Part shown: piece after piece, positions 1 to 38,378 of the stretch
Position numbering within the stretch: position 1 is the stretch's first letter
Layout of the letters: the number at the start of each line of letters is the position of its first letter
IMG/VR virus record: IMGVR_UViG_3300035193_000016
From: a virus
Reading direction: 5' to 3' (one strand)
Length of the DNA stretch: 38,378 nucleotides
Program-made: the position numbers and the translations under genes
The notes under the pieces: generated by a model
What the model was told of the DNA's origin: nothing
The model's input: the letters and a program-made list of their open reading frames with translations, nothing else
The model's database searches: none

Positions 1-127
1 CCGCAGCCAGGCCATGGAACGCGGATCGGAGGAGGAGGCAGGTGCGCGCACGCTGTACGAGTTTCGCACCGATGCGATCGTCACCGAGGTTGGTCTGGTG
101 CTGCATCCGACGCTCGACTATCTTGCC
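1..127. repeat. terminal direct repeat copy 1 (identical to 38252-38378); circularisation overlap
   Basis: The same 127 nt (ccgcagccaggccatggaacgcgg...cgctcgactatcttgcc) is read at both window ends with no mismatch seen. The exonuclease reading frame is continuous across the junction. Confidence 0.95.
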
Positions 128-8971: not shown

Positions 8972-9127
8972 ATGACCCTCTACGTATACGAGATCAAGAC
9001 AAACAAGCCAATAGTAGAGATCGACATGCCGACTCAGCAACAGTGTGAGGCCATCGTCCGTAAACTCGGACTCGACGCCGAGGAGTATGGCGTGAGCATG
9101 TTCGCTGACAAGGAGGCATCCAGATGA
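8972..9127 (+). CDS. small hypothetical protein (51 aa; absent from the ORF track)
   Basis: AAGGAG at 8961-8966 precedes the ATG at 8972. My translation is MTLYVYEIKTNKPIVEIDMPTQQQCEAIVRKLGLDAEEYGVSMFADKEASR*. The stop overlaps the next start (ATGA). Confidence 0.55.
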   Translation: MTLYVYEIKTNKPIVEIDMPTQQQCEAIVRKLGLDAEEYGVSMFADKEASR

Positions 9128-9324
9128 CAATCGACCGACCACGACAGTGGATCAAGGAACATGGCCTCAAACAACGTGAAGCTGCTCTCATCTGCGGCGT
9201 AACCGAGAGGACTGTGCGTAACTGGTGTGCCAATAAGCCTCCTATGCCGGTGACCGCTCAACGGCTCATGCTCGTATGGTCAGGCGACATGAGCCGTGAC
9301 GAGCTCGACGAGCTGAGGAGATAA
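9124..9324 (+). CDS. helix-turn-helix DNA-binding protein
   Basis: LKQREAALICGVTERTVRNWCAN is a typical HTH segment. 66 aa. Confidence 0.6.
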   Translation: MTIDRPRQWIKEHGLKQREAALICGVTERTVRNWCANKPPMPVTAQRLMLVWSGDMSRDELDELRR

Positions 9325-9396: not shown

Positions 9397-10209
9397 ATGA
9401 GGTATTTGGTCACGGGCGGAACCGGCAGCTTTGGGAGCCGATTTGTTGAACGAGTCATTACGGACGGGCACGAAGCGATAGTGTTTTCGAGGGATGAGCT
9501 CAAGCAGTATGAGATGCGAAAACGCATCACCGGTGCCGAATATGTGATTGGCGATGTTCGCGATAACGCAGCTTTGGAGGAAACCATTAGTCGACGTCGA
9601 TGCAACCGTGTCGTCCACGCCGCAGCACTGAAGCATGTACACACCGGCGAGACTCAGCCATGGGAGTCGGTTAAGACGAATATCATCGGCACGAAAAACG
9701 TAGTTGATGTCTGTGATGATTGGGGATGCGAGCTTGTGTTTCTGTCTACCGACAAGGCCGTTGAACCGGTAAATCTTTACGGCGCAACGAAAATGATAGC
9801 CGAGAGAATCATTCTTGATGCCGGCCAACGGGTTGTAAGGTATGGCAACGTGTTCGGGTCTCGCGGCTCGGTGCTCCACGTATTCGATACGCAGAAGCGG
9901 GACGGCGTGTTTACTATTACCGATCAGCGTATGACGCGGTTTGTGATTACGCTCGATGAGGCGGTTGATTTTGTTCTCAATGCATTCGAAGGCAATACGG
10001 GAACCGTTAGCATCCCAGTTCTTCGGGCTATTCGCATTGTTGATCTTGCAAGAGCTTTCGACCCAACCGCTGAGATACGAGAGATAGGCGTGCAGCCTGG
10101 CGAAAAACTGGCCGAGGTGCTTGGGGATGGTCAGCGATCTGACGAGGCGCCGCTGTTATCGGTTGATGAGATTCGGGAGCTGATCAATGAAACCCTACAC
10201 GATCGTTGA
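9397..10209 (+). CDS. pseB: UDP-GlcNAc 4,6-dehydratase (PseB/FlaA1/CapD family)
   Basis: YLVTGGTGSFG, SRDELKQYEM, IGDVRD, HAAALKHV, KTNIIGTKNV, LSTDKAVEPVNLYGATK, VRYGNVFGSRGSV, ITDQRMTRFVITLDEAV and PGEKLAEV are collinear with FlaA1/PseB motifs as I recall them. ATG at 9397 lies in frame within track ORF 9349... Confidence 0.85.
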   Translation: MRYLVTGGTGSFGSRFVERVITDGHEAIVFSRDELKQYEMRKRITGAEYVIGDVRDNAALEETISRRRCNRVVHAAALKHVHTGETQPWESVKTNIIGTKNVVDVCDDWGCELVFLSTDKAVEPVNLYGATKMIAERIILDAGQRVVRYGNVFGSRGSVLHVFDTQKRDGVFTITDQRMTRFVITLDEAVDFVLNAFEGNTGTVSIPVLRAIRIVDLARAFDPTAEIREIGVQPGEKLAEVLGDGQRSDEAPLLSVDEIRELINETLHDR

Positions 10210-10780
10210 CGCCTTCGAGGAGCGGGTCGCCGAGTATGCCGGAGCTAAGTATGGCGTAGGGGTCAATAGCTGCACCTCTGCAATTATGCTCTCTGCAAAG
10301 TATCGATTTATGCATCGCTACCACACGAGGGCATATCTACCGAGCAGGACGTATGTTGGAGTACCAAACGCGATTATTGCCGCTGGTGGTGAAGTAAATT
10401 TTAAGGACTTTCAATGGTCTGGATGGTACCAGATTCTCCCTCTCGGCATTATCGATAGTGCCCGCAGATTTAGGAAAGGAATGTACAAAGACGGCACGCT
10501 CTATTGCATTTCTTTCCATTGGGGTAAGCATCTCAAAATAGGCACTGGGGGTATGGTTCTTACCGACGATGAGGAGGCATGGAAGGAGTTGAAACGGCTC
10601 AGACATGACGGGAGGACACCGACAATTCACCCGAAACGTGATACAATTGGTTTTGGTTGGCACGTCGGAATGGCTCCAGAAGATGCGGCGAAAGGGCTCA
10701 TGCTCATGCAATATATGCCTGACTACAACGAAGACATTCCATGGGATGACTATCCAGATTGCTCGAGGATATTTTTATGA
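10187..10780 (+). CDS. DegT/DnrJ/EryC1-type PLP sugar aminotransferase, strongly shortened (PseC/LegC-like)
   Basis: FEERVAEYAGAKYGVGVNSCTSAI, IIDSARRF and ISFHWGKHLKIGTGGMVLTDD (PLP-lysine motif SFHxxK) are present. The protein is only 197 aa. Confidence 0.7.
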   Translation: MKPYTIVDAFEERVAEYAGAKYGVGVNSCTSAIMLSAKYRFMHRYHTRAYLPSRTYVGVPNAIIAAGGEVNFKDFQWSGWYQILPLGIIDSARRFRKGMYKDGTLYCISFHWGKHLKIGTGGMVLTDDEEAWKELKRLRHDGRTPTIHPKRDTIGFGWHVGMAPEDAAKGLMLMQYMPDYNEDIPWDDYPDCSRIFL

Positions 10781-10992
10781 GTTGGATAGATGATTCTGTA
10801 TCAAAGGCAATGATTCGAGACACGAAAAAGAAGCTTAAGGCAACCATCATTGATCAATACAACAGACTGATTGAATGCGAATACGATCGCGACGAAGCGG
10901 TAGCGGCAATCAAGGGGCAGATACTGACGATATCACCAGAGCATTGGCCACTTGTAGAACTATGGCTGTCGAAAAAGGAGCGAGGGGAATGA
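10777..10992 (+). CDS. hypothetical 71-aa protein inside the sugar cassette
   Basis: ATG at 10777 overlaps the upstream TGA. No family recognised. Confidence 0.5.
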   Translation: MSWIDDSVSKAMIRDTKKKLKATIIDQYNRLIECEYDRDEAVAAIKGQILTISPEHWPLVELWLSKKERGE

Positions 10993-11591
10993 GTCAATTC
11001 ATTATTGAGTTAGGTTCGGCAAACGAACATCACAACGACATTGGATATCTGCGCGACATGATTGATGCGGTGATCGACTGCGATACAGGCAAGCACAGCA
11101 TTGTCATGAAGCATCAGCTATTCGAGCATGCCGGTGGGAACGAACCGCTCTTGTGGCGCACGTTTGCATGGGCATATGGCTATGCGTGTGAGCGAGGATA
11201 CCCAACAACGGCCAGCGTGTTCGACATCACCTCACTCCATTTCCTTGAACGATTTGACGTGCCGTTTGTCAAGATCGCTTGCGTCCCAAAGCTGTACTGG
11301 CTTGCTCGCAAGACTGACCGTCACGTGTACTTGAGCGTCAATGGCACGTATCCCGAGATAGAAGGCGAGACACACCTTGCATGCGTGCGAAGCTACCCGG
11401 CAGACGCCGCGCAGTACGTGCACAACTTCAGCTCGCTCAAGGTCATCTCAGACCACACCGAAGGCTGGGGCCTTTACAAAAGGTACTTGCCTGTTATCAT
11501 TGAGAAGCACTTTTGCCTCAAACGATCTTCCGACAATCCCGATTCTGGACCGTTCGCGGTTACGCCGAAAGAGCTTGCGGAGGTACTGTGA
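10989..11591 (+). CDS. NeuB/PseI/LegI-type nonulosonic acid synthase, minimal (no SAF domain)
   Basis: IIELGSANEHH, VMKHQLF, FVKIACVP, YLSVNG, ISDHTEGWG and IIEKHFCLKRSSDNPDSGPFAVTPKEL are collinear with NeuB-family motifs. 200 aa. Confidence 0.7.
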   Translation: MSQFIIELGSANEHHNDIGYLRDMIDAVIDCDTGKHSIVMKHQLFEHAGGNEPLLWRTFAWAYGYACERGYPTTASVFDITSLHFLERFDVPFVKIACVPKLYWLARKTDRHVYLSVNGTYPEIEGETHLACVRSYPADAAQYVHNFSSLKVISDHTEGWGLYKRYLPVIIEKHFCLKRSSDNPDSGPFAVTPKELAEVL

Positions 11592-12103
11592 TGAGGATTG
11601 CATTTTGCACCAACAACGAAAACACTCATCCTACCGCACGTTGGCTGCACACCGTCGCCGATGTGGCGATCTATGACGACCATAAGTTGATAGATGATTG
11701 CGACCTGATCGTGAGCTATAACTATCGCTACATTGTTCCAGCAAAGCTGCTGAACAAGTACCCGGCAATCAATCTGCACATGAGTCTGTTGCCGTGGAAT
11801 CGCGGAGCACATCCGATCGTGTGGGCCGCGCGTGAAGGGACTCCGTTCGGCGTCACGATCCACGAGATGACTCCAGCGCTTGATCGAGGGAACATCATCG
11901 CTCAGAGAGAGATACAGATACCCAAAACGTACACGCTCAAACAGGCATATCAACGACACCAAGACGAGATGCTGACGCTGTTGCAGAATACGTGGCAGAG
12001 TATTGTGCAAATGGTCGGGAGTTACCACCATACCGGCCAACTCGGTGATCTCTCAAATGGCTGGGATACTACCATCGAGGAGGTTCGCAATGCTCCGGCT
12101 TGA
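11591..12103 (+). CDS. formyltransferase (Formyl_trans_N-type; sugar N-formyltransferase candidate)
   Basis: IVSYNYRYIVP ... NLHMSLLPWNRGAHPIVWA ... GVTIHEMTPALDRGNII matches the HxSLLPxxRG signature. 170 aa, covering the N-domain only. Confidence 0.7.
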   Translation: MRIAFCTNNENTHPTARWLHTVADVAIYDDHKLIDDCDLIVSYNYRYIVPAKLLNKYPAINLHMSLLPWNRGAHPIVWAAREGTPFGVTIHEMTPALDRGNIIAQREIQIPKTYTLKQAYQRHQDEMLTLLQNTWQSIVQMVGSYHHTGQLGDLSNGWDTTIEEVRNAPA

Positions 12104-12569
12104 ACCACTGAAGCTTGTTCATGCGCTCATGGCGCTTGAGTGGCGTGCAGAGCAGCCGAATTGCCTGAGAACAAGATATCAGATATCAGAAGATGAGCAG
12201 GTGAATTGGTGGAAACAACATCGACAATGGTGGTTTACCATAACGGATGATGGAACACCCATTGGATACACCGGGTTTGGAAGCTTCGGTACCATGCCCG
12301 AGCTGTCGTTTTTGATCACAAAATCAGCATGGGACATCTGGCAAGAGGCATTTGATCTTGTAATCCATAAAGGGATCAAAGCCGACTTTTTCGTCGCCGA
12401 AGTGTACCTTGATTCTGAGACATTGGCGGAATGGACACTTGCCGCACGGCGCTATTCCGCTGGTTCGGTGATTTTTCCAAGGCGAAAAAAAACAAGCGGC
12501 GGCGATTTTGTGGATTCGCTGCTGATTGTATTTAACGGGGAATCATTCGAGGAGAAAGCCGATGCGTAA
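12090..12569 (+). CDS. GNAT-like N-acetyltransferase (PseH-like candidate)
   Basis: MLRLEPL...LEWRAEQPNCLRTRYQISEDEQVNWW resembles the N-terminus of PseH/GNAT proteins. GAGGAGG upstream. The call rests mainly on context. Confidence 0.5.
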   Translation: MLRLEPLKLVHALMALEWRAEQPNCLRTRYQISEDEQVNWWKQHRQWWFTITDDGTPIGYTGFGSFGTMPELSFLITKSAWDIWQEAFDLVIHKGIKADFFVAEVYLDSETLAEWTLAARRYSAGSVIFPRRKKTSGGDFVDSLLIVFNGESFEEKADA

Positions 12570-13176
12570 CGTCTGTATCATCCCGGCGCGGAAAGGATCG
12601 AAGCGGCTGCCTGGGAAGAACCGAATCGAGTTTTTCGGCCGGCCGATTATTCAGAACCCGATAGATGCCGCTGTATCATCCGGATTGTTTGAGCGGATCG
12701 AAGTATCTACCGACGATGAAGCCATGCGCAACATCGTGTTTCCACCCGCTGTGATAAACTGGAGATCGCCCGAGCTCTGTGCCGATGATGTTCCCGATAT
12801 CGATGTTGTGCGTCACTATTGTGACCGACACCGGGATGCAACGTATCTATGTTATCTGTATGCCACCGCTGCGCTTGTGACGCCGGCGCAATTGCTTCGT
12901 GGTCTATCACTGTTGAGGCGATCCGGCGTTGTGAGTACATACTGTTGCGTCGGTCATTCAACTGCCGATGTCGGACAATTTTACTGGTTTGATGTCGCGG
13001 CGATGATATCCAACAAGCTCCAAACCCAAATTGGATTAGTGCTTGACGATCTAGAATGCCAGGACATCAATACTGCCGACGATCTGTGGATTGCTGAACA
13101 GAAGTTGCGGGCGACTCGGAACTACATCACGCTCAAAACACGCGAAGTATCAGATCAGGAAAGTGGGCTGAAGTAA
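12562..13176 (+). CDS. CMP-nonulosonic acid cytidylyltransferase (NeuA/PseF/LegF family)
   Basis: The N-terminal CIIPARKGSKRLPGKN signature is followed by IEVSTDD. GGAGAAAG upstream. Confidence 0.8.
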   Translation: MRNVCIIPARKGSKRLPGKNRIEFFGRPIIQNPIDAAVSSGLFERIEVSTDDEAMRNIVFPPAVINWRSPELCADDVPDIDVVRHYCDRHRDATYLCYLYATAALVTPAQLLRGLSLLRRSGVVSTYCCVGHSTADVGQFYWFDVAAMISNKLQTQIGLVLDDLECQDINTADDLWIAEQKLRATRNYITLKTREVSDQESGLK

Positions 13177-13239: not shown

Positions 13240-14031
13240 ATGGATGAATTTAGGCGGTTATCGCGCCAAATACAGGATATACAGGGCCATAAACGGCTAT
13301 TTTTGGCCTATTCCACGGGCGCCGATGCCACCGCTGCGTGGCTGAGATGTATCGAATCTGACGAATGGGACCCATCCGAGGCCGTACTATACTACTATTA
13401 CCACACGCCTATGTCGTGGACGTGGGAGTACCTTGACTGGTTTGAGGACCATTTTGGCGTCAAGGTAGAACGTGTCCCATCCCACTTGTGCCTTGAATCG
13501 TTAGCGAATTGGTATTTTCAGACACCGGCCAGAGTCGAGGCCATTGTCGAGCTCGCGAAAACACCCCAACACTTCGGGGCGCTCACAAAACAACAGATAC
13601 AGAGGTTTACGGCGTACTGGGCCGGACTGCCGGATACAACGCTTGTCGCACTCGGCGTCAAACAGGGCGACTCCCCAATGCGACGAAAAGCCATGCGCCA
13701 GACTCAGGGGATTAGCCGCAAACAAGGGAAATGGTACCCGATTTGGGACTTTGAAAATCGAGACGCCATTGAGCTCCTGAAGCGGCATAATTGCAAAGTC
13801 CCATATGACTACGAGCTATTCGGAATTACCTTCGAACAACTTGACTACCGCTTTTCAAAAGTGTTGAAAGAACAGTGCCCGAACAATTGGGCGCGCGTGC
13901 TTGATCGATTCCCAATGGCGGAGACGATCATTTCAAGGAGGGAGTACTATCATCCCGATTGGCCGTTGAGGAAGGGCGTGATGTACAAGAAATTCGGCGA
14001 TCTGGTGCTACAGCCAAAGGATCCACTATGA
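13240..14031 (+). CDS. PAPS reductase-like / PP-loop ATPase superfamily protein (degenerate P-loop)
   Basis: LAYSTGADATAA aligns with the SGGxDS PP-loop, VALGVKQGDSPMRRKAMRQ with the GxRxxES-R region, and YPIWDFENRDAIELLKRHNCKVPYDYELF with the P-x-x-W...Y motif region. Confidence 0.5.
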   Translation: MDEFRRLSRQIQDIQGHKRLFLAYSTGADATAAWLRCIESDEWDPSEAVLYYYYHTPMSWTWEYLDWFEDHFGVKVERVPSHLCLESLANWYFQTPARVEAIVELAKTPQHFGALTKQQIQRFTAYWAGLPDTTLVALGVKQGDSPMRRKAMRQTQGISRKQGKWYPIWDFENRDAIELLKRHNCKVPYDYELFGITFEQLDYRFSKVLKEQCPNNWARVLDRFPMAETIISRREYYHPDWPLRKGVMYKKFGDLVLQPKDPL

Positions 14032-29526: not shown

Positions 29527-29906
29527 TTCACGAATACCTTGTGGATGATGACGGTATGATTACCGGGTCAAAGCTGATAAGCGAATTTGATCAACCAAAC
29601 GGACCTGCCCAATGCAACAAGCCAATATCGGTATTGTTCGACAAAAAAAACCGGCCACTATACCGAATGACTGAGCGTGGGCCCGAAGAGATGGGTATAT
29701 CAGATGATGAAAAAGCGAACGACAAGCAGCTAGAAATAAATGCTGTTGCCCAGAGGCATCTTCGCGAAAGTGATGTTTCAGTATTGAGGGCACTGGAAGA
29801 ATTGTTTGCCAATCAATTACCAAAAGAGCTAATAGAATCAAGGCGAGACGAGAGAGCTAAAATAAAGGAGTTGCCCAAATGGCTGAGACAAAACAGATAC
29901 GATTGA
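29523..29906 (+). CDS. hypothetical tail-module protein
   Basis: 127-aa ORF with an ATGA overlap upstream. It overlaps the next gene by 28 nt. Confidence 0.5.
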   Translation: MIHEYLVDDDGMITGSKLISEFDQPNGPAQCNKPISVLFDKKNRPLYRMTERGPEEMGISDDEKANDKQLEINAVAQRHLRESDVSVLRALEELFANQLPKELIESRRDERAKIKELPKWLRQNRYD

Positions 29907-30559
29907 GAGAAGGCACTGCTGCAGAATGGACCAGCGCAGACCCGACGTTGCTATCCGGTGAAATGGGCGTTGAGGCAGACACAAAAAAATTCAAGGTCGG
30001 CGATGGGTCTACCGCGTGGACCAGTCTTGCCTATTGGGCCTACCCTCCTATAGGAACAATTATTGCTTATGGCGGAACATCTGCACCTTCCGGGTATTTG
30101 GCATGCGATGGGTCTGCTGTGAGTCGCACTACCTACGCTGATCTTTTCTCTGCCATAGGTACGACGTGGGGCGTGGGAGACGGATCGACGACGTTCAACG
30201 TGCCTGACCTTCGTGGAGCATATCTACGTGGCGCTGGGAGTCACGGATCGGAGACGATGGCCGACGGCAACCCTTATGCCGGTCCTGCTGTCGGGGCGTT
30301 CGAAGATGACCAGATGCAGGGGCATATTCATTTCTCCGGTGCTGGAACAAGAGCGCCGGGAGAACCGGGTGTATATGGATCAACGACCGATGATATTCCC
30401 GGAATGACTGATAATTATTACGGGCATTCGACCGGCAATGTCGCAACAAAACATGCCATAACGTCAGATCCAAAGGAAGACGCCAGTAATGACACTCCAC
30501 GCACGGGAGATGAAACGCGTCCGTTTGCGGCAGGAGTACTTTACTGCATCAAAACGTAA
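29879..30559 (+). CDS. tail fibre protein with phage tail collar domain
   Basis: The N-terminal IRLREGTAAEWTSADPTLLSGEMGVEADTKKFKVGDGSTAWTSL is a fibre N-terminal repeat. GTIIAYGG...PSGYLACDGSAVSRTTYADLFSAIGTTWGVGDGSTTFNVPDLRG is the collar motif. Confidence 0.75.
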   Translation: MAETKQIRLREGTAAEWTSADPTLLSGEMGVEADTKKFKVGDGSTAWTSLAYWAYPPIGTIIAYGGTSAPSGYLACDGSAVSRTTYADLFSAIGTTWGVGDGSTTFNVPDLRGAYLRGAGSHGSETMADGNPYAGPAVGAFEDDQMQGHIHFSGAGTRAPGEPGVYGSTTDDIPGMTDNYYGHSTGNVATKHAITSDPKEDASNDTPRTGDETRPFAAGVLYCIKT

Positions 30560-34103: not shown

Positions 34104-34903
34104 CGCCACCACCTCAGAAGCTCGACGTGGAGGACGTCGGGATCGTTGGAGTAGTTCTCAGCGAATTGCCTCCAGACGCATTCGTGATCTGCTGCGTAGG
34201 CCATCCCACCCTTTTCACTCATGCTGACATCCTCAGGTGCCACCGCAGGATCGAAGCCTCGCGGGCGGATTTGGTCGTAGGGTTCCGATGGTGAGAGGTT
34301 GCTGTACTCTGATACCTCCCCACCATTAGCCATCCATCCAGCGGTCCAAGCGTCCCAGTCATCATTCCGCATCTCAACAGGCAGACCAACCGGAAAAAGC
34401 GGTGCCTCGGGATCGCGGCCGGTCCATGTGCGCTTCAGAAGGTGGTAGGCGACGATGCGATTTGTCTCAGTAGGTATTCCACGACCCCACCCGTAGAAAT
34501 GACCATCAGCCTTGCCCTCCGCACACTCGCACACGTACCCGTCCGCCCAGGCATACCCCCACTCCCCAGCCTTCGCATCGGGGATCTGGCACTCGCCTCC
34601 GTTGTGCGCTACCCAGCCGTCGCCGGGGAGAGGTATAATAGTAGAATAGACATGATCCAAATCTCTCAGGTATGCCATGTGGTGCCGAGTCTTCTTTTTT
34701 GGTGAACTCCACGCATGGCTATGTTCATCAAACCAACGAATATACCATTCGCCCGTAGAATTTAATCTCACCACCGCCCATGTGTTGCGCGGAGGCTCAG
34801 GCGACCAATCATCATTATCTGGTAACTTCACCAGAACCTTGTCGAGTTGACGCTGCCCGACCATTTCCTCGCGGATGATCTCTCTCACTCGTTCTTCAGT
34901 CAT
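34100..34903 (-). CDS. hypothetical 267-aa protein (Trp/Gly-rich)
   Basis: It shares its first 8 codons (MTEERVRE) and part of its leader with the upstream gene. No family recognised. Confidence 0.6.
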   Translation of the reverse strand: MTEERVREIIREEMVGQRQLDKVLVKLPDNDDWSPEPPRNTWAVVRLNSTGEWYIRWFDEHSHAWSSPKKKTRHHMAYLRDLDHVYSTIIPLPGDGWVAHNGGECQIPDAKAGEWGYAWADGYVCECAEGKADGHFYGWGRGIPTETNRIVAYHLLKRTWTGRDPEAPLFPVGLPVEMRNDDWDAWTAGWMANGGEVSEYSNLSPSEPYDQIRPRGFDPAVAPEDVSMSEKGGMAYAADHECVWRQFAENYSNDPDVLHVELLRWWR

Positions 34904-35588
34904 TGGGTGCCTCCATGGCCGACTTAAGCAGCCTATTCAACATCCGAGTCAGACGACGATTTTGTTTTCGCGCCGCCGCATCCCATGCCGCATCCATTGC
35001 CGCAGCCCTTGCCGCATCCCTTACCGCATCCCTTGCCGCAGCCCATGCCGCATCCCTTGCCGCATCCCTTGCCGCAGCCCATGCCGCAGCACTTGCCGCA
35101 GCCCATGCCGCATCCCATGCCGCAGCACTTGCCGCAGCCCATGCCGCATCCCATGCCGCAGCACTTGCCGCAGCCCATGCCGCAGCCCGGATGTCCTCGT
35201 CTCCGGTCTTAAGATATCGGACTACTATTTCTGGGGCATCCCACAGATGGATCACATCAAGGGCGCACATGCGGGCGAACTTCCTTAGCACCTTGGTTGC
35301 GTCTACGCCGGGTTGCTGGACGAATGCCTTGCCGACTACCTTGTCATCGCCTCGAACGATGTCCTCAAGCGGCCGCTTGCTGATCCATGGTCCGGGGGCG
35401 TACCACAAGGCGTCGATCACCTGCTCACTACCATGGTAGCCGCGCTCACACAGGATGGGTTCGCACTCGATAGCATATCGCTTACCGTTCTCAACAAGCG
35501 TGCCGTCACTCATGACCGGGCGTCCCTTTTCGTCCATCGCGCAGAAGTGCCAGTAGGTTTTCATCTCTCTCACTCGTTCTTCAGTCAT
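34896..35588 (-). CDS. protein with C-terminal Ala/Trp helical tandem repeats (Imm5-like putative immunity-type repeat)
   Basis: [21 protein letters not shown] is followed by ([12 protein letters not shown])n and [17 protein letters not shown] recall this pattern from Imm-5-like alpha-repeat proteins. Confidence 0.55.
34975..35190. repeat. 18 x 12-bp tandem repeat (GCCGCAkCCCwT) with a 36-bp higher-order unit
   Basis: Read directly from the sequence. The array has no stop codon in five of the six frames (five overlapping track ORFs span it). Confidence 0.9.
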
Positions 35589-36171: not shown

Positions 36172-36403
36172 GACTGTCTATCCAGTGACCGATACGCGCC
36201 GAGCTGCCGTGCTCCAATCGCTGATTGACACGGCTCGGATGCGTTGGGGTGATGACATAACCCGGTGCTCTGGTAAATCGTCGTGGGACGAGTGCCTTAC
36301 CATGCTCCCTGATGGACGGATGGCACTGTGGTTCAACGACAGCAGCAACTCGACGCACATTCAGACGTACCGGCCCGTCGATAGACCGGGTGGAGTGAGC
36401 TGA
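36155..36403 (+). CDS. hypothetical protein
   Basis: The ATG at 36155 lies in frame within track ORF 36110... Its 3' end contains copy B of the 34-bp element. Confidence 0.5.
   Translation: MPRSVETVYPVTDTRRAAVLQSLIDTARMRWGDDITRCSGKSSWDECLTMLPDGRMALWFNDSSNSTHIQTYRPVDRPGGVS
36362..36395 (+). promoter_or_regulatory. 34-bp conserved leader/boundary element, copy B
   Basis: cagacgtaccggcccgtcgatagaccgggtggag ends 7 nt before the ATG at 36403. Confidence 0.6.
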
Positions 36404-36753
36404 TGAAGAAACGCATGATTACCATCGAACAACTCCGCAATGCTGACGCATGCAGCGAGCAGGTAGAGTTGTTCCGCGAGCTCTTTGGCGAGCGAACCTA
36501 CGTGACAGAAGCAAAAGCGCAAAGATTTGCCACCAAGTTTAATTTCGAGTGGGCGAAAAAGTTACTGACCGCCCAGGCGTGGGAGGCGTACAGCAAGGCG
36601 ACCGCACCGGCGCGGAAGGCGTACATCAAGGCGATCGCACCGGCGCGGGAGGCGTACATCAAGGCGATCGCCCAGGAGCAGGATGCGTACGAAAAGGCGA
36701 TCGCCCAGGCGTGGGCCCGGGCCTACATCAACGACGTGCCGGCCCGTGGGTAG
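36403..36753 (+). CDS. protein with Ala/Tyr helical tandem repeats
   Basis: The N-terminal ITIEQLRNADACSEQVELFRELFG is followed by (A.A.AR.AYIKAIA)n repeats. Confidence 0.6.
   Translation: MKKRMITIEQLRNADACSEQVELFRELFGERTYVTEAKAQRFATKFNFEWAKKLLTAQAWEAYSKATAPARKAYIKAIAPAREAYIKAIAQEQDAYEKAIAQAWARAYINDVPARG
36586..36717. repeat. 4 x 33-bp tandem repeat (gcgtacatcaaggcgatcgcaccggcgcgggag)
   Basis: Units begin at 36586, 36619, 36652 and 36685. The first three are near-identical and the last diverges. Confidence 0.85.
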
Positions 36754-36778
36754 GCCACTACCACGTGGGGCGCTTTTT
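36742..36778 (+). terminator. weak intrinsic terminator candidate
   Basis: cccgtgg/ccacg(t)gg forms a stem with one bulge and an 11-nt loop, followed by gcgcTTTTT. It overlaps the stop codon at 36751-36753. Confidence 0.3.
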
Positions 36779-36787
36779 GGAGGTTTC

Positions 36788-36982
36788 ATGGCATCGACAT
36801 ACAAGACAATCGTATCACTCGAACGCGCGGCGGAGATATTTCGGGCGATCGGGCTTCGGACGCTCGACACCGATCGCGAGGTATCTATTACAGAGGCAGA
36901 ACAGTACATCCCGGCTGATACGTTCGCCGAGTTTCTCGAGGTGAATCGATCGCGGTATCTGTTCCGGGAGGCTGGCGTATGA
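36788..36982 (+). CDS. hypothetical protein
   Basis: The ATG at 36788 follows TGGAGG. 64 aa. Confidence 0.5.
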   Translation: MASTYKTIVSLERAAEIFRAIGLRTLDTDREVSITEAEQYIPADTFAEFLEVNRSRYLFREAGV

Positions 36983-38080: not shown

Positions 38081-38378
38081 GTGCGTTCAAGGTTCGCCAG
38101 AATGGGAACAAGCACGCTGCGGCATTATCACAGCGTCACGTATCTCCGACATCCTCGCGCAAGGACGTGGCGGAGCGCCGTCGGCGAGCCGAAAAAACTA
38201 CATGATGGAGCTGCTCGTTGAGCGGCTCACCTGGCAGCCAGCCGAGCACTACCGCAGCCAGGCCATGGAACGCGGATCGGAGGAGGAGGCAGGTGCGCGC
38301 ACGCTGTACGAGTTTCGCACCGATGCGATCGTCACCGAGGTTGGTCTGGTGCTGCATCCGACGCTCGACTATCTTGCC
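38067..38378 (+). CDS. YqaJ/lambda-Exo-like recombination exonuclease, N-terminal part (runs off the window and continues at 2-448)
   Basis: The ATG at 38067 overlaps the ERF stop. MRIVECVQGSPEWEQARCGIITASRISDIL is the YqaJ N-terminal signature. Confidence 0.85.
   Translation, partial: MRIVECVQGSPEWEQARCGIITASRISDILAQGRGGAPSASRKNYMMELLVERLTWQPAEHYRSQAMERGSEEEAGARTLYEFRTDAIVTEVGLVLHPTLDYLA
38252..38378. repeat. terminal direct repeat copy 2 (identical to 1-127)
   Basis: See copy 1. Confidence 0.95.

Follow-up and report, generated by a model that had tools for sequence, protein, structure and literature searches.

A compact phage-borne gene cassette for the probable formation of a CMP-activated pseudaminic acid

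Introduction

The virus genome deposited in IMG/VR as IMGVR_UViG_3300035193_000016, a stretch of 38,378 nucleotides that is called the window throughout this work, carries a cassette of seven genes (g1 to g7, positions 9397-13176) which probably constitutes a working phage-encoded route from the uridine diphosphate (UDP)-GlcNAc of the host to cytidine monophosphate (CMP)-pseudaminic acid. The encoded enzymes point to the N-formylated derivative CMP-Pse5Ac7Fo (5-acetamido-7-formamido) as the likely product and to a transferase of the host as its consumer. Pseudaminic acids are bacterial surface sugars present on flagella, pili, lipopolysaccharides and capsules and are known both as phage receptors and as virulence factors. 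A reading of the DNA letters alone, referred to here as the sequence-only reading, had already described the cassette as a compact, phage-borne system for a CMP-nonulosonic acid of the pseudaminic or legionaminic type. This description stands and can be narrowed to the pseudaminic type: the best relatives of the proteins are PseB, PseC, PseI, PseJ, PseH and PseF.

From the enzyme families present we infer the following order of reactions, product, dependence on the host and acceptor. The PseB-type enzyme g1 would oxidize, dehydrate and 5-epimerize UDP-GlcNAc to a 4-keto-6-deoxy-L-sugar, the half-size pyridoxal phosphate (PLP)-dependent aminotransferase g2 would aminate C4, and the PseJ-type enzyme g5 would formylate the new amine with N10-formyl-tetrahydrofolate. 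UDP would then be removed by an enzyme that is absent from the phage, probably a PseG presumed to be supplied by the host or else an unrecognized activity, before the SAF-free barrel synthase g4 would condense the free sugar with phosphoenolpyruvate (PEP) and the PseF-type enzyme g7 would couple the resulting acid to CMP. With the 5-N-acetyl group supplied by UDP-GlcNAc and the 7-N-formyl group by the PseJ-type enzyme, CMP-Pse5Ac7Fo is the predicted product; g6 would be a PseH relic or an adaptor. Since the genome lacks a transferase, a presumed host transferase is favoured as the most probable user of the CMP-sugar. The pseudaminic acid of the host is normally 7-N-acetylated, and in the course of infection that on flagellin, lipopolysaccharide or capsule would be swapped to the 7-N-formyl form. 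The steps after formylation are chemically plausible because the respective enzymes accept formylated substrates: bacterial PseF takes Pse5Ac7Fo as well as Pse5Ac7Ac (PMC11040635) and, according to a second report, PseI from Campylobacter jejuni converts the 4-formamido precursor (PMC13576459).

Table 1. Genes of the cassette, their positions in the window and the matches on which the assignments are based
Gene	Assignment	Position	Strand	Basis
g1	PseB-type UDP-GlcNAc 4,6-dehydratase, 270 aa	9397-10209	+	TIGR03589, Polysacc_synt_2
g2	Half-size DegT/PseC-type PLP aminotransferase, 197 aa	10187-10780	+	DegT_DnrJ_EryC1, AlphaFold model
g3	Small protein without family assignment, 71 aa	10777-10992	+	No Pfam, NCBIfam or PHROG match
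g4	Minimal NeuB/PseI-type PEP-condensing nonulosonic acid synthase, 200 aa	10989-11591	+	NeuB and PseI profiles, model
g5	PseJ-type sugar N-formyltransferase, single domain, 170 aa	11591-12103	+	Formyl_trans_N, 6ci2
g6	PseH-like GNAT-fold protein, degenerate acetyl-CoA loop, 159 aa	12090-12569	+	Alignment with positional counterparts
g7	PseF-type CMP-nonulosonic acid synthetase (cytidylyltransferase), 204 aa	12562-13176	+	TIGR03584, CTP_transf_3

Results

Dehydratase and cytidylyltransferase

The open reading frame (ORF) g1 matches the PseB profile TIGR03589 with an E value of 4e-76 and Polysacc_synt_2 with 8e-71. Its closest solved relative is FlaA1/PseB from Helicobacter pylori (2gn4, 2.6e-54), with the segments TGGTGSFG, STDKA and YGATK in register, and the PseB motifs TGGxGxxG, STDKA and YxxxK are all carried by the protein. 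These matches bear out the PseB/FlaA1-type dehydratase that had been proposed. When the equivalogs are ranked, PseB (256 bits) comes well before FnlA (7e-47, 160 bits) and LegB (9e-12, 45 bits), and g1 is predicted to belong to the inverting, 5-epimerizing type of UDP-GlcNAc 4,6-dehydratases. The protein is short at its C-terminus, covering positions 8-261 of the 324-position PseB model, and its score compares with a curated cut-off of 407 bits. It shares 45% identity with the products of plasmid pseB genes annotated by the Prokaryotic Genome Annotation Pipeline (PGAP).

The CMP-sugar cytidylyltransferase proposed for the other end of the cassette was found again as well. The g7 protein matches PseF (TIGR03584, 2e-35; 122 bits at a cut-off of 206) and CTP_transf_3 (1.5e-18). 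Among solved structures, NeuA-type CMP-sugar synthetases match best; the motifs IIPARxGSKRxPxKN and QDIxTxDD align with theirs, and the P-loop is present. Identity to a PGAP-annotated PseF amounts to 32% over 224 amino acids (aa). No PseF-type cytidylyltransferase was found in the 50,697 deposited phage records.

The short synthase

The g4 protein is recognized by the NeuB (1e-8) and the PseI profile (TIGR03586, 3e-8). Its relatives fall into 49 clusters, nearly all of 193-241 aa, in which K41, Q43, N51, S76, K95, S116, S154-D155-H156-T157, E172, H174 and D185 are invariant; these positions include the metal-binding histidines H156 and H174 and the PEP-binding residues K95, S116 and S154. A profile built from the family has PseI from C. 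jejuni as its best solved match (8h2c, 6.7e-10, versus 1.9e-5 for NeuB), and the motifs K-I-A, Y-P-A, S-D-H and I-E-K-H-F of both are aligned. The AlphaFold model (predicted local distance difference test, pLDDT, 96.1) is an eight-stranded TIM barrel, and its top matches in Foldseek are all NeuB, PseI or SpsE. Profiles, fold and metal-binding histidines are thus in agreement with the NeuB/PseI-type synthase of 200 aa that the sequence-only reading had recognized.

The protein ends 14 residues past the barrel and has no SAF/antifreeze-like domain, as had also been noticed before. This domain is missing in all 49 clusters, and PF08666 was met only on a distant match of 332 aa. The short synthase is a conserved family and not a gene fragment. 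On one related contig a full-length PseI-like synthase of 340 aa (L043:3942-4964) is encoded beside the short one.

The short aminotransferase

DegT_DnrJ_EryC1 matches g2 in two stretches (5e-19), and PseC is the best equivalog. At least 276 clusters are related to g2 and, among the 120 listed, nearly all members comprise 196-247 aa. The residues S28-C29-T30, T55-Y56, D90, S109, H111 and K114 are invariant across the family (K114, D90 and S28-T30 were compared in 45 relatives); S-C-T is the phosphate-binding and T-Y the ring-stacking element, and Lys114, located in SFHWGK, forms the Schiff base. In the AlphaFold model (pLDDT 93.1) the seven-stranded sheet of the PLP domain is kept, and Foldseek places the model among sugar aminotransferases including PseC from H. 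pylori (2fnu, TM about 0.7 over the query). The invariant K114 and the fold match confirm the DegT/PseC-type aminotransferase that had been deduced from its SFHWGK lysine motif; this motif and IIPARKGSKRLPGKN, the other one quoted at the time, are both present.

Aligned with an enzyme of 375 aa, residues 7-80 of g2 correspond to 35-107 and residues 103-180 to 172-247, whereas 248-375 have no counterpart. What remains in g2 is the large PLP domain with trimmed helices; the C-terminal domain is absent altogether, and the enzyme is further shortened by about 28 residues at the N-terminus and by about 42 internally. The two-domain layout of the DegT/DnrJ/EryC1/StrS enzymes (about 360-400 aa, with a small C-terminal domain) is not found in this 197-residue protein. 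Just as the short synthase, the short aminotransferase is a conserved family and not a gene fragment. Profile searches and the models of g2 and g4 thus back the families proposed, and PLP lysine, synthase metal ligands and cytidylyltransferase P-loop are all in place.

Short DegT-type aminotransferases (about 195-215 aa) are also encoded by two cultured phages, Flavobacterium phage vB_FspM_immuto (immuto; L001, 7986-8630) and Synechococcus phage S-SCSM2R (L002, 7998-8585), where they are annotated as ordinary transaminase or 'AHBA synthase' and reside in glycosyltransferase-rich clusters. Together with the huge phages LR756511 and LR756502, these two phages contain full-length relatives of g2 (32-42% identity, 87-97% coverage). 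The short DegT proteins of all four are encoded among dehydratases and glycosyltransferases in clusters that look hexose- or bacillosamine-type rather than nonulosonic.

Formyltransferase and GNAT-fold protein

The proposed formyltransferase is corroborated by matches of g5 to Formyl_trans_N (5e-19) and, among solved structures, to 'formyltransferase PseJ' (6ci2/6ci4, 192 aa; 1e-23 over residues 32-164). As read from the sequence, N61, H63 and D98 sit in the usual motif H-x-S-L-L-P-x-x-R-G ... D and, judged by the family, probably form the Asn-His-Asp catalytic triad. The restriction to an N-domain had been taken for a phage miniaturization. It is instead the known architecture of PseJ, as exemplified by the 192 residues of 6ci2. 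Completion of the Pse5Ac7Fo route is attributed to PseJ in the literature (PMC11040635), and it is this homologue, g5 (1e-23), that represents the N-acylation step in the cassette.

The g6 protein alone yields no significant profile match (GNAT, E = 0.14). Aligned with five positional counterparts it matches PseH from C. jejuni (4xpk, 2e-7), and the PseH profile TIGR03585 matches three of the six aligned GNATs (best 4.8e-7), g6 not being among them. GNAT proteins bind the pyrophosphate of acetyl-CoA through a loop after strand 4, R/Q-x-x-G-x-G/A. At this position g6 reads KSAWDIWQEA, with no glycine, whereas relatives from islands devoid of a formyltransferase read xGxGYGxxA. The loop has been lost in 15 of the 16 GNATs that adjoin PseJ, including g6, and about ten of these, again including g6, are left with no glycine in it at all; in GNATs of PseJ-free islands G-x-G is kept in nearly all cases. 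The loss accompanies PseJ in two different island layouts and can be followed within the lineage of g6 itself: locus L029, which has no PseJ, keeps RREGLG, whereas the present genome and locus L012, both with PseJ, have lost the loop. The PseJ-linked GNAT loci are related to each other, and the counts given here represent few independent loss events, albeit at least two. Degenerate GNATs include those of loci L004-L006, L012, L015-L017 and L020. Between g6 and its counterpart in L012 identity is about 27%, as compared with 55-64% for PseB, PseC, PseI and PseJ and 42-64% for the neighbours overall.

Because the acetyl-CoA-binding loop is lost, g6 is probably not an acetyltransferase and hence not a second N-acylating enzyme. 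Of the GNAT-like acyltransferase proposed earlier, the PseH-like descent is upheld by the alignment (4xpk, 2e-7), whereas the acyltransferase function is not. Similarly, a mixed N-formyl/N-acetyl sugar, which had been predicted from the pair of formyltransferase and GNAT, is a plausible product, though not by the route via the GNAT.

Enzyme sizes and integrity of the cassette

A PGAP-annotated pse cluster on a Klebsiella plasmid (NZ_CP055164.1) served as the size reference. Compared with its products, the phage enzymes measure 197 versus 383 aa for PseC, 200 versus 349 for PseI, 270 versus 332 for PseB and 204 versus 236 for PseF; g5 has 170 residues where PseJ has 192, and g6 has 159 as compared with 163 in the PseH chain of 4xpk. 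The earlier statement that all enzymes are shortened is correct for PseC, PseI and PseB and, to a slight extent, for PseF, whereas formyltransferase and GNAT are near normal size.

Three enzymes much shorter than their bacterial counterparts, one missing step and a fast-evolving GNAT with a destroyed cofactor loop might be taken to indicate that the genes are truncated relics of a captured bacterial pse cluster and that no sugar is made. We regard such a decaying remnant as very improbable. The short forms are conserved in length over dozens to hundreds of clusters with invariant catalytic residues, and g2 and g4 fold confidently as complete domains. None of the cassette ORFs contains a frameshift or an internal stop. 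Consecutive genes from g1/g2 to g6/g7 overlap by 23, 4, 4, 1, 14 and 8 nucleotides in a tight operon, a GAGG/GGAG-type ribosome-binding site lies 5' of each of the seven starts, and the gene order is kept in relatives at 42-64% protein identity.

Recurrence of the cassette in other phages

Although it had at first appeared as a peculiarity of one genome, the cassette belongs to a recurring module. None of the 50,697 deposited phage records contains a short synthase, a nucleotide search of these records with the cassette gave no match, and no match to the NeuB-type fold was found among the predicted structures of viral UniProt proteins (BFVD). On the other hand, the short synthase occurs on 74 IMG/VR contigs and on 11 contigs from metagenome-assembled genomes assigned to scattered phyla including an archaeon; the latter are most simply explained as mis-binned phage contigs. 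Neighbours were counted in 80 non-redundant phage-like loci carrying the short synthase. PseB is present in 65 of these, a cytidylyltransferase in 63, a GNAT in 61 and a DegT protein in 57 (nine short, the others full length). Maf/PseD-like proteins, whose genes adjoin pseB, were found in 33 loci, PseA/WbuX amidotransferases in 18 and PseJ-type formyltransferases likewise in 18. Profile matches in islands of relatives reach 1e-54 for PseD/Maf (NF050051), 4e-58 for PseA/WbuX and 4e-67 for a Pse-associated methylase, the last of these above its curated cut-off.

Closest to the present cassette are L012, with the same seven-gene order and 42-64% protein identity, and L029, with the same backbone but no formyltransferase. 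A large terminase gene is in reach in 27 loci; in 21 of them it follows the end of the island at a distance of less than 3 kb, and the terminases belong to different families. Islands that are free of Maf may contain other transferases, namely a GT29-like sialyltransferase of 251 aa in nine loci (L099:4082-4834) and a Capsule_synth/KpsS-like protein of 441 aa in five (L081:8014-9336), and phage lineages may accordingly differ in the nonulosonic acid transferase that they use.

Further observations were made in these islands. GIY-YIG/HNH homing endonucleases are encoded between pse genes in several loci (L006:11765-12634, L020:4626-5282, L027:805-1440 and L015:10650-11090). Two PseF-type ORFs (L025:6754-7965 and L038:5939-7081) continue into a C-terminal segment resembling sigma-70/ECF region 4, which is either a fusion or an artefact of ORF calling. 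In L012, a TROVE-domain (Ro60-like) protein of 446 aa is encoded directly upstream of the island (L012:3549-4889).

The set of neighbours also bears on the identity of the sugar. The cassette might lead to legionaminic acid or another nonulosonic isomer, or the pathway might end at a UDP-2,4-diamino-2,4,6-trideoxyhexose of the bacillosamine or AltNAc type, in which case the NeuB-like and cytidylyltransferase genes would serve another keto-acid sugar. All equivalog scores lie under the curated cut-offs, the short DegT protein also occurs in the NeuB-free, bacillosamine-like clusters of immuto and S-SCSM2R, the model of g4 matches NeuB and PseI about equally by fold, and a pathway that requires no free sugar would be less affected by the absence of PseG. 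We nevertheless consider a different sugar improbable. For g1, PseB outscores LegB and FnlA by 256 bits to 45 and 160; the synthase profile prefers PseI over NeuB (6.7e-10 versus 1.9e-5); g7 and g5 have PseF and PseJ, respectively, as best matches; relatives carry PseA, the Pse methylase and PseD; and a hydrolysing epimerase of the NeuC/LegG type is encoded neither in this genome nor in the three relatives with complete Pfam tables.

The missing hydrolase and the transferase

Pathway completeness, as claimed by the sequence-only reading, has to be withdrawn: the circular genome of 38,251 bp contains neither a PseG-type hydrolase nor a glycosyltransferase that could be recognized. When the Klebsiella pseB, pseC, pseF and pseI products were used as queries in a six-frame search of the 38-kb genome, they retrieved exactly g1, g2, g7 and g4, whereas a bona fide PseG retrieved nothing (best E = 1.6). 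Among the 1,798 ORFs of 89 related loci (8-10 kb flanks), the PseG query, which carries a fused PseH part, produced a single match, and this was a GNAT (E = 0.006); the PseB, PseC, PseF and PseI queries match strongly in the same search. Neither a GT-B nor a NeuC/LegG-type gene appears in the Pfam tables of this genome and the three relatives with complete tables. Unidentified neighbouring ORFs of the relatives were considered as a hidden PseG and dismissed, since the clusters sampled correspond to proteins of other kinds, such as homing endonucleases, a methylase, oxidoreductases, radical SAM, ATP-grasp and PIG-L deacetylase.

A transferase was likewise detected neither with the Maf proteins of relatives as queries nor when the other larger ORFs of the genome were scanned against Pfam and PHROGs, and none is detectable in the closest relatives L012 and L029. 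The main rival to the use of the sugar by a host transferase is decoration of the virion. The pathway would be the same, but capsid or tail proteins of the phage would be O-glycosylated late in infection by a transferase that went unrecognized here, which could shield the particle or aid binding. This proposal is consistent with the location of the island, which in 21 of 27 loci precedes the large terminase gene by less than 3 kb, although cargo genes of the moron type typically lie beside packaging genes as well. Further support comes from the Maf/PseD-like protein glycosyltransferases in 33 of the 80 loci, supplemented by the GT29-like (nine) and KpsS-like (five) proteins, and from the lytic appearance of the genomes, in which no integrase was found and homing endonucleases reside inside the islands. 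Mycobacteriophage virions are known to be glycosylated by phage-encoded transferases. On the other hand, this genome, L012 and L029 contain no recognizable transferase, and the Maf proteins characterized so far act on flagellin and none of them on phage proteins. We consider virion decoration a real but distinctly less probable alternative than transfer by the host.

In a wider and still tentative generalization, widespread uncultivated tailed phages would make a sialic acid-like sugar with a reduced enzyme set that can do without PseG and attach it to virions or host appendages via Maf-, GT29- or KpsS-type transferases. If true, the NeuB-type synthase and the DegT-type aminotransferase of this set would be the smallest known of their kinds, and this would be the first nonulosonic acid glycosylation directed by a bacteriophage.

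Genome context and neighbouring genes

The first and last 127 bases of the window (1-127 and 38252-38378) are an identical direct repeat, and because of this identity the stretch is a complete circular genome with a unit length of 38,251 bp. The phage is of the siphovirus type: genes for SSB, ERF/YqaJ recombination proteins, a replication initiator and an N6/N4 methyltransferase are followed by those for small and large terminase, SPP1-type portal, MuF, scaffold, capsid, a tape measure protein of 905 aa and a tail fibre. As read originally, seven co-directional, overlapping genes lie between the early genes and the packaging module, and all were recovered at their coordinates on the plus strand. 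Upstream of the cassette, genes for a helix-turn-helix (HTH) protein (the last early gene, 9124-9324), the replication initiator, SSB and ERF are found; downstream follow small terminase (GP3_package), large terminase, SPP1-type portal and MuF. Independent gene calling on another assembly of this genome yielded the identical seven genes. The G+C content of the cassette (0.49-0.53) resembles that of the late region of the genome. A scan for promoters and terminators returned counts at chance expectation.

The small protein g3, for which the earlier statement of unknown function holds in that no family match was found, has among 1.84 billion representatives two relatives of 70 aa and one weak match to a repeat protein. 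It is weakly similar to an ORF of 87 aa at the same position in L012, is absent from the other relatives and is no conserved part of the island. That g3 might supply the C-terminal portion absent from the aminotransferase, or stand in for PseG, was considered and rejected on the grounds of lacking similarity and lacking conservation in relatives. Between island and terminase lies g8 (13240-14031, 263 aa), a PAPS-reductase-like protein (PHROGs 2302 and 424) with no NCBIfam or PDB match. It was considered as a PseA-like amidotransferase and member of the island and discarded, as it resembles neither PseA of L014 nor the ORF in the corresponding position of L029; it is not conserved together with the island.

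The best phage relatives of the terminase are from Staphylococcus phages, and with identities of only about 35% this match was rejected as an indication of the host. The genome offers no usable tRNA; ARAGORN reports a tRNA-like element at 2810-2881 with an abnormal two-base anticodon 'gt'. No integrase was found by Pfam or PHROGs in the scanned ORFs of at least 100 aa of the complete circular genome, and several minus-strand ORFs at 30.8-36.1 kb are without annotation.

Three other loci are recorded here as side observations. The tail-fibre protein encoded at 29879-30559 combines Mtd_N (major tropism determinant) with phage tail collar domains. Mtd is a target of diversity-generating retroelements; near this gene no template/variable repeat pair was found, and the scanned ORFs include no reverse transcriptase. 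At 34939-35224, a tandem array with a period of 12 nucleotides and a length of about 285 nucleotides lies inside a minus-strand ORF of 229 aa (34896-35588), whose product is a tetrapeptide-repeat protein matching PHROG 18326, a group with no function assigned. A 33-nucleotide direct repeat in 4-5 copies, corresponding to a protein repeat of 11 residues, is present at 36567-36731 inside ORFs at 36403-36944.

Discussion

Several points weigh against a working pathway of the kind proposed here. Every equivalog score remains below the curated NCBI cut-off. The synthase g4 has no SAF domain, and in NeuB from Neisseria meningitidis it is this domain that contributes an arginine to the active site of the partner subunit; the PDB holds the corresponding NeuB R314A/K mutants (4ipi and 4ipj). 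The aminotransferase g2 is devoid of the C-terminal domain, and to our knowledge no aminotransferase of its size has been characterized. A UDP-sugar hydrolase was found neither in the genome nor in any of the 89 loci, and for want of this enzyme the encoded reactions would come to a halt unless hydrolysis is performed by the host or by an unrecognized protein. Finally, a classical role in lysogenic conversion appears unlikely, as no integrase was found in the scanned ORFs of at least 100 aa.

In comparison with the PseB-PseC-PseH-PseG-PseI-PseF pathway of C. jejuni and H. pylori, the cassette uses the same enzyme families with the same catalytic motifs at five of six steps. Identities to the Klebsiella proteins range from 45% (g1, PseB) over 32% (g7, PseF) and 25% (g4, PseI) to 21% (g2, PseC). 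Unlike the bacterial pathway, the cassette lacks PseG and is carried by a 38-kb phage and not by a cell, and PseH appears functionally replaced by PseJ and left behind as a degenerate GNAT. The g5 protein shares with the PseJ branch (6ci2/6ci4) its small single-domain form, with 133 residues aligned at E = 1e-23; it is about 20 residues shorter at the N-terminus, and in phages its gene nearly always adjoins that of a loop-degenerate GNAT. With NeuB, PseI and SpsE (1xuu, 8h2c, 1vli and 6ncs), g4 has in common the TIM barrel (TM 0.7-0.8 over the query), the SDH and E-K-H metal site and the K-I-A and Y-P-A motifs. It differs from them by being about 140 residues shorter, with trimmed loops and without the linker and the C-terminal SAF domain. 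The nearest solved chain that consists of the barrel only is an uncharacterized Leptospira entry of 285 aa (6ncs).

Related phage islands also resemble the flagellin glycosylation islands of the Campylobacter type, as PseD/Maf, PseA and the methylase are encoded beside pse genes in both. In contrast to Campylobacter-type islands, the genome studied here contains none of these accessory genes, and the phage islands are situated beside packaging genes and not at a flagellar locus. The cassette is, in sum, a near-member of the Pse pathway, from which it departs by the lack of the SAF domain, of the C-terminal aminotransferase domain and of PseG.

A full-text literature search returned no paper on a phage-encoded pathway of this type. 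The literature does contain phage proteins that bind, cleave, acetylate or epimerize pseudaminic acid, and one review gives pseI as an auxiliary gene of marine phages. Every enzyme family involved and the underlying chemistry are already known. What is new is the carrier, a small tailed phage with counterparts on at least 80 phage-like contigs, together with the minimal forms of two enzymes, the systematic absence of PseG and the link between PseJ and the degenerate GNAT.

The 200-residue synthase and the 197-residue aminotransferase represent the minimal catalytic cores of two well-studied families. If active, they would demonstrate that neither the SAF domain nor the C-terminal domain of the aminotransferase is essential, and they would be convenient small catalysts for the chemoenzymatic preparation of pseudaminic acid derivatives, for which there is a demand in the field of glycoconjugate vaccines and antibodies. 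Concrete questions about how the pathway can be rewired are raised by the consistent lack of PseG and by the retention of a cofactor-blind GNAT next to PseJ. Phages that make an activated sugar of this kind could rewrite the surface of their host or coat their own particles.

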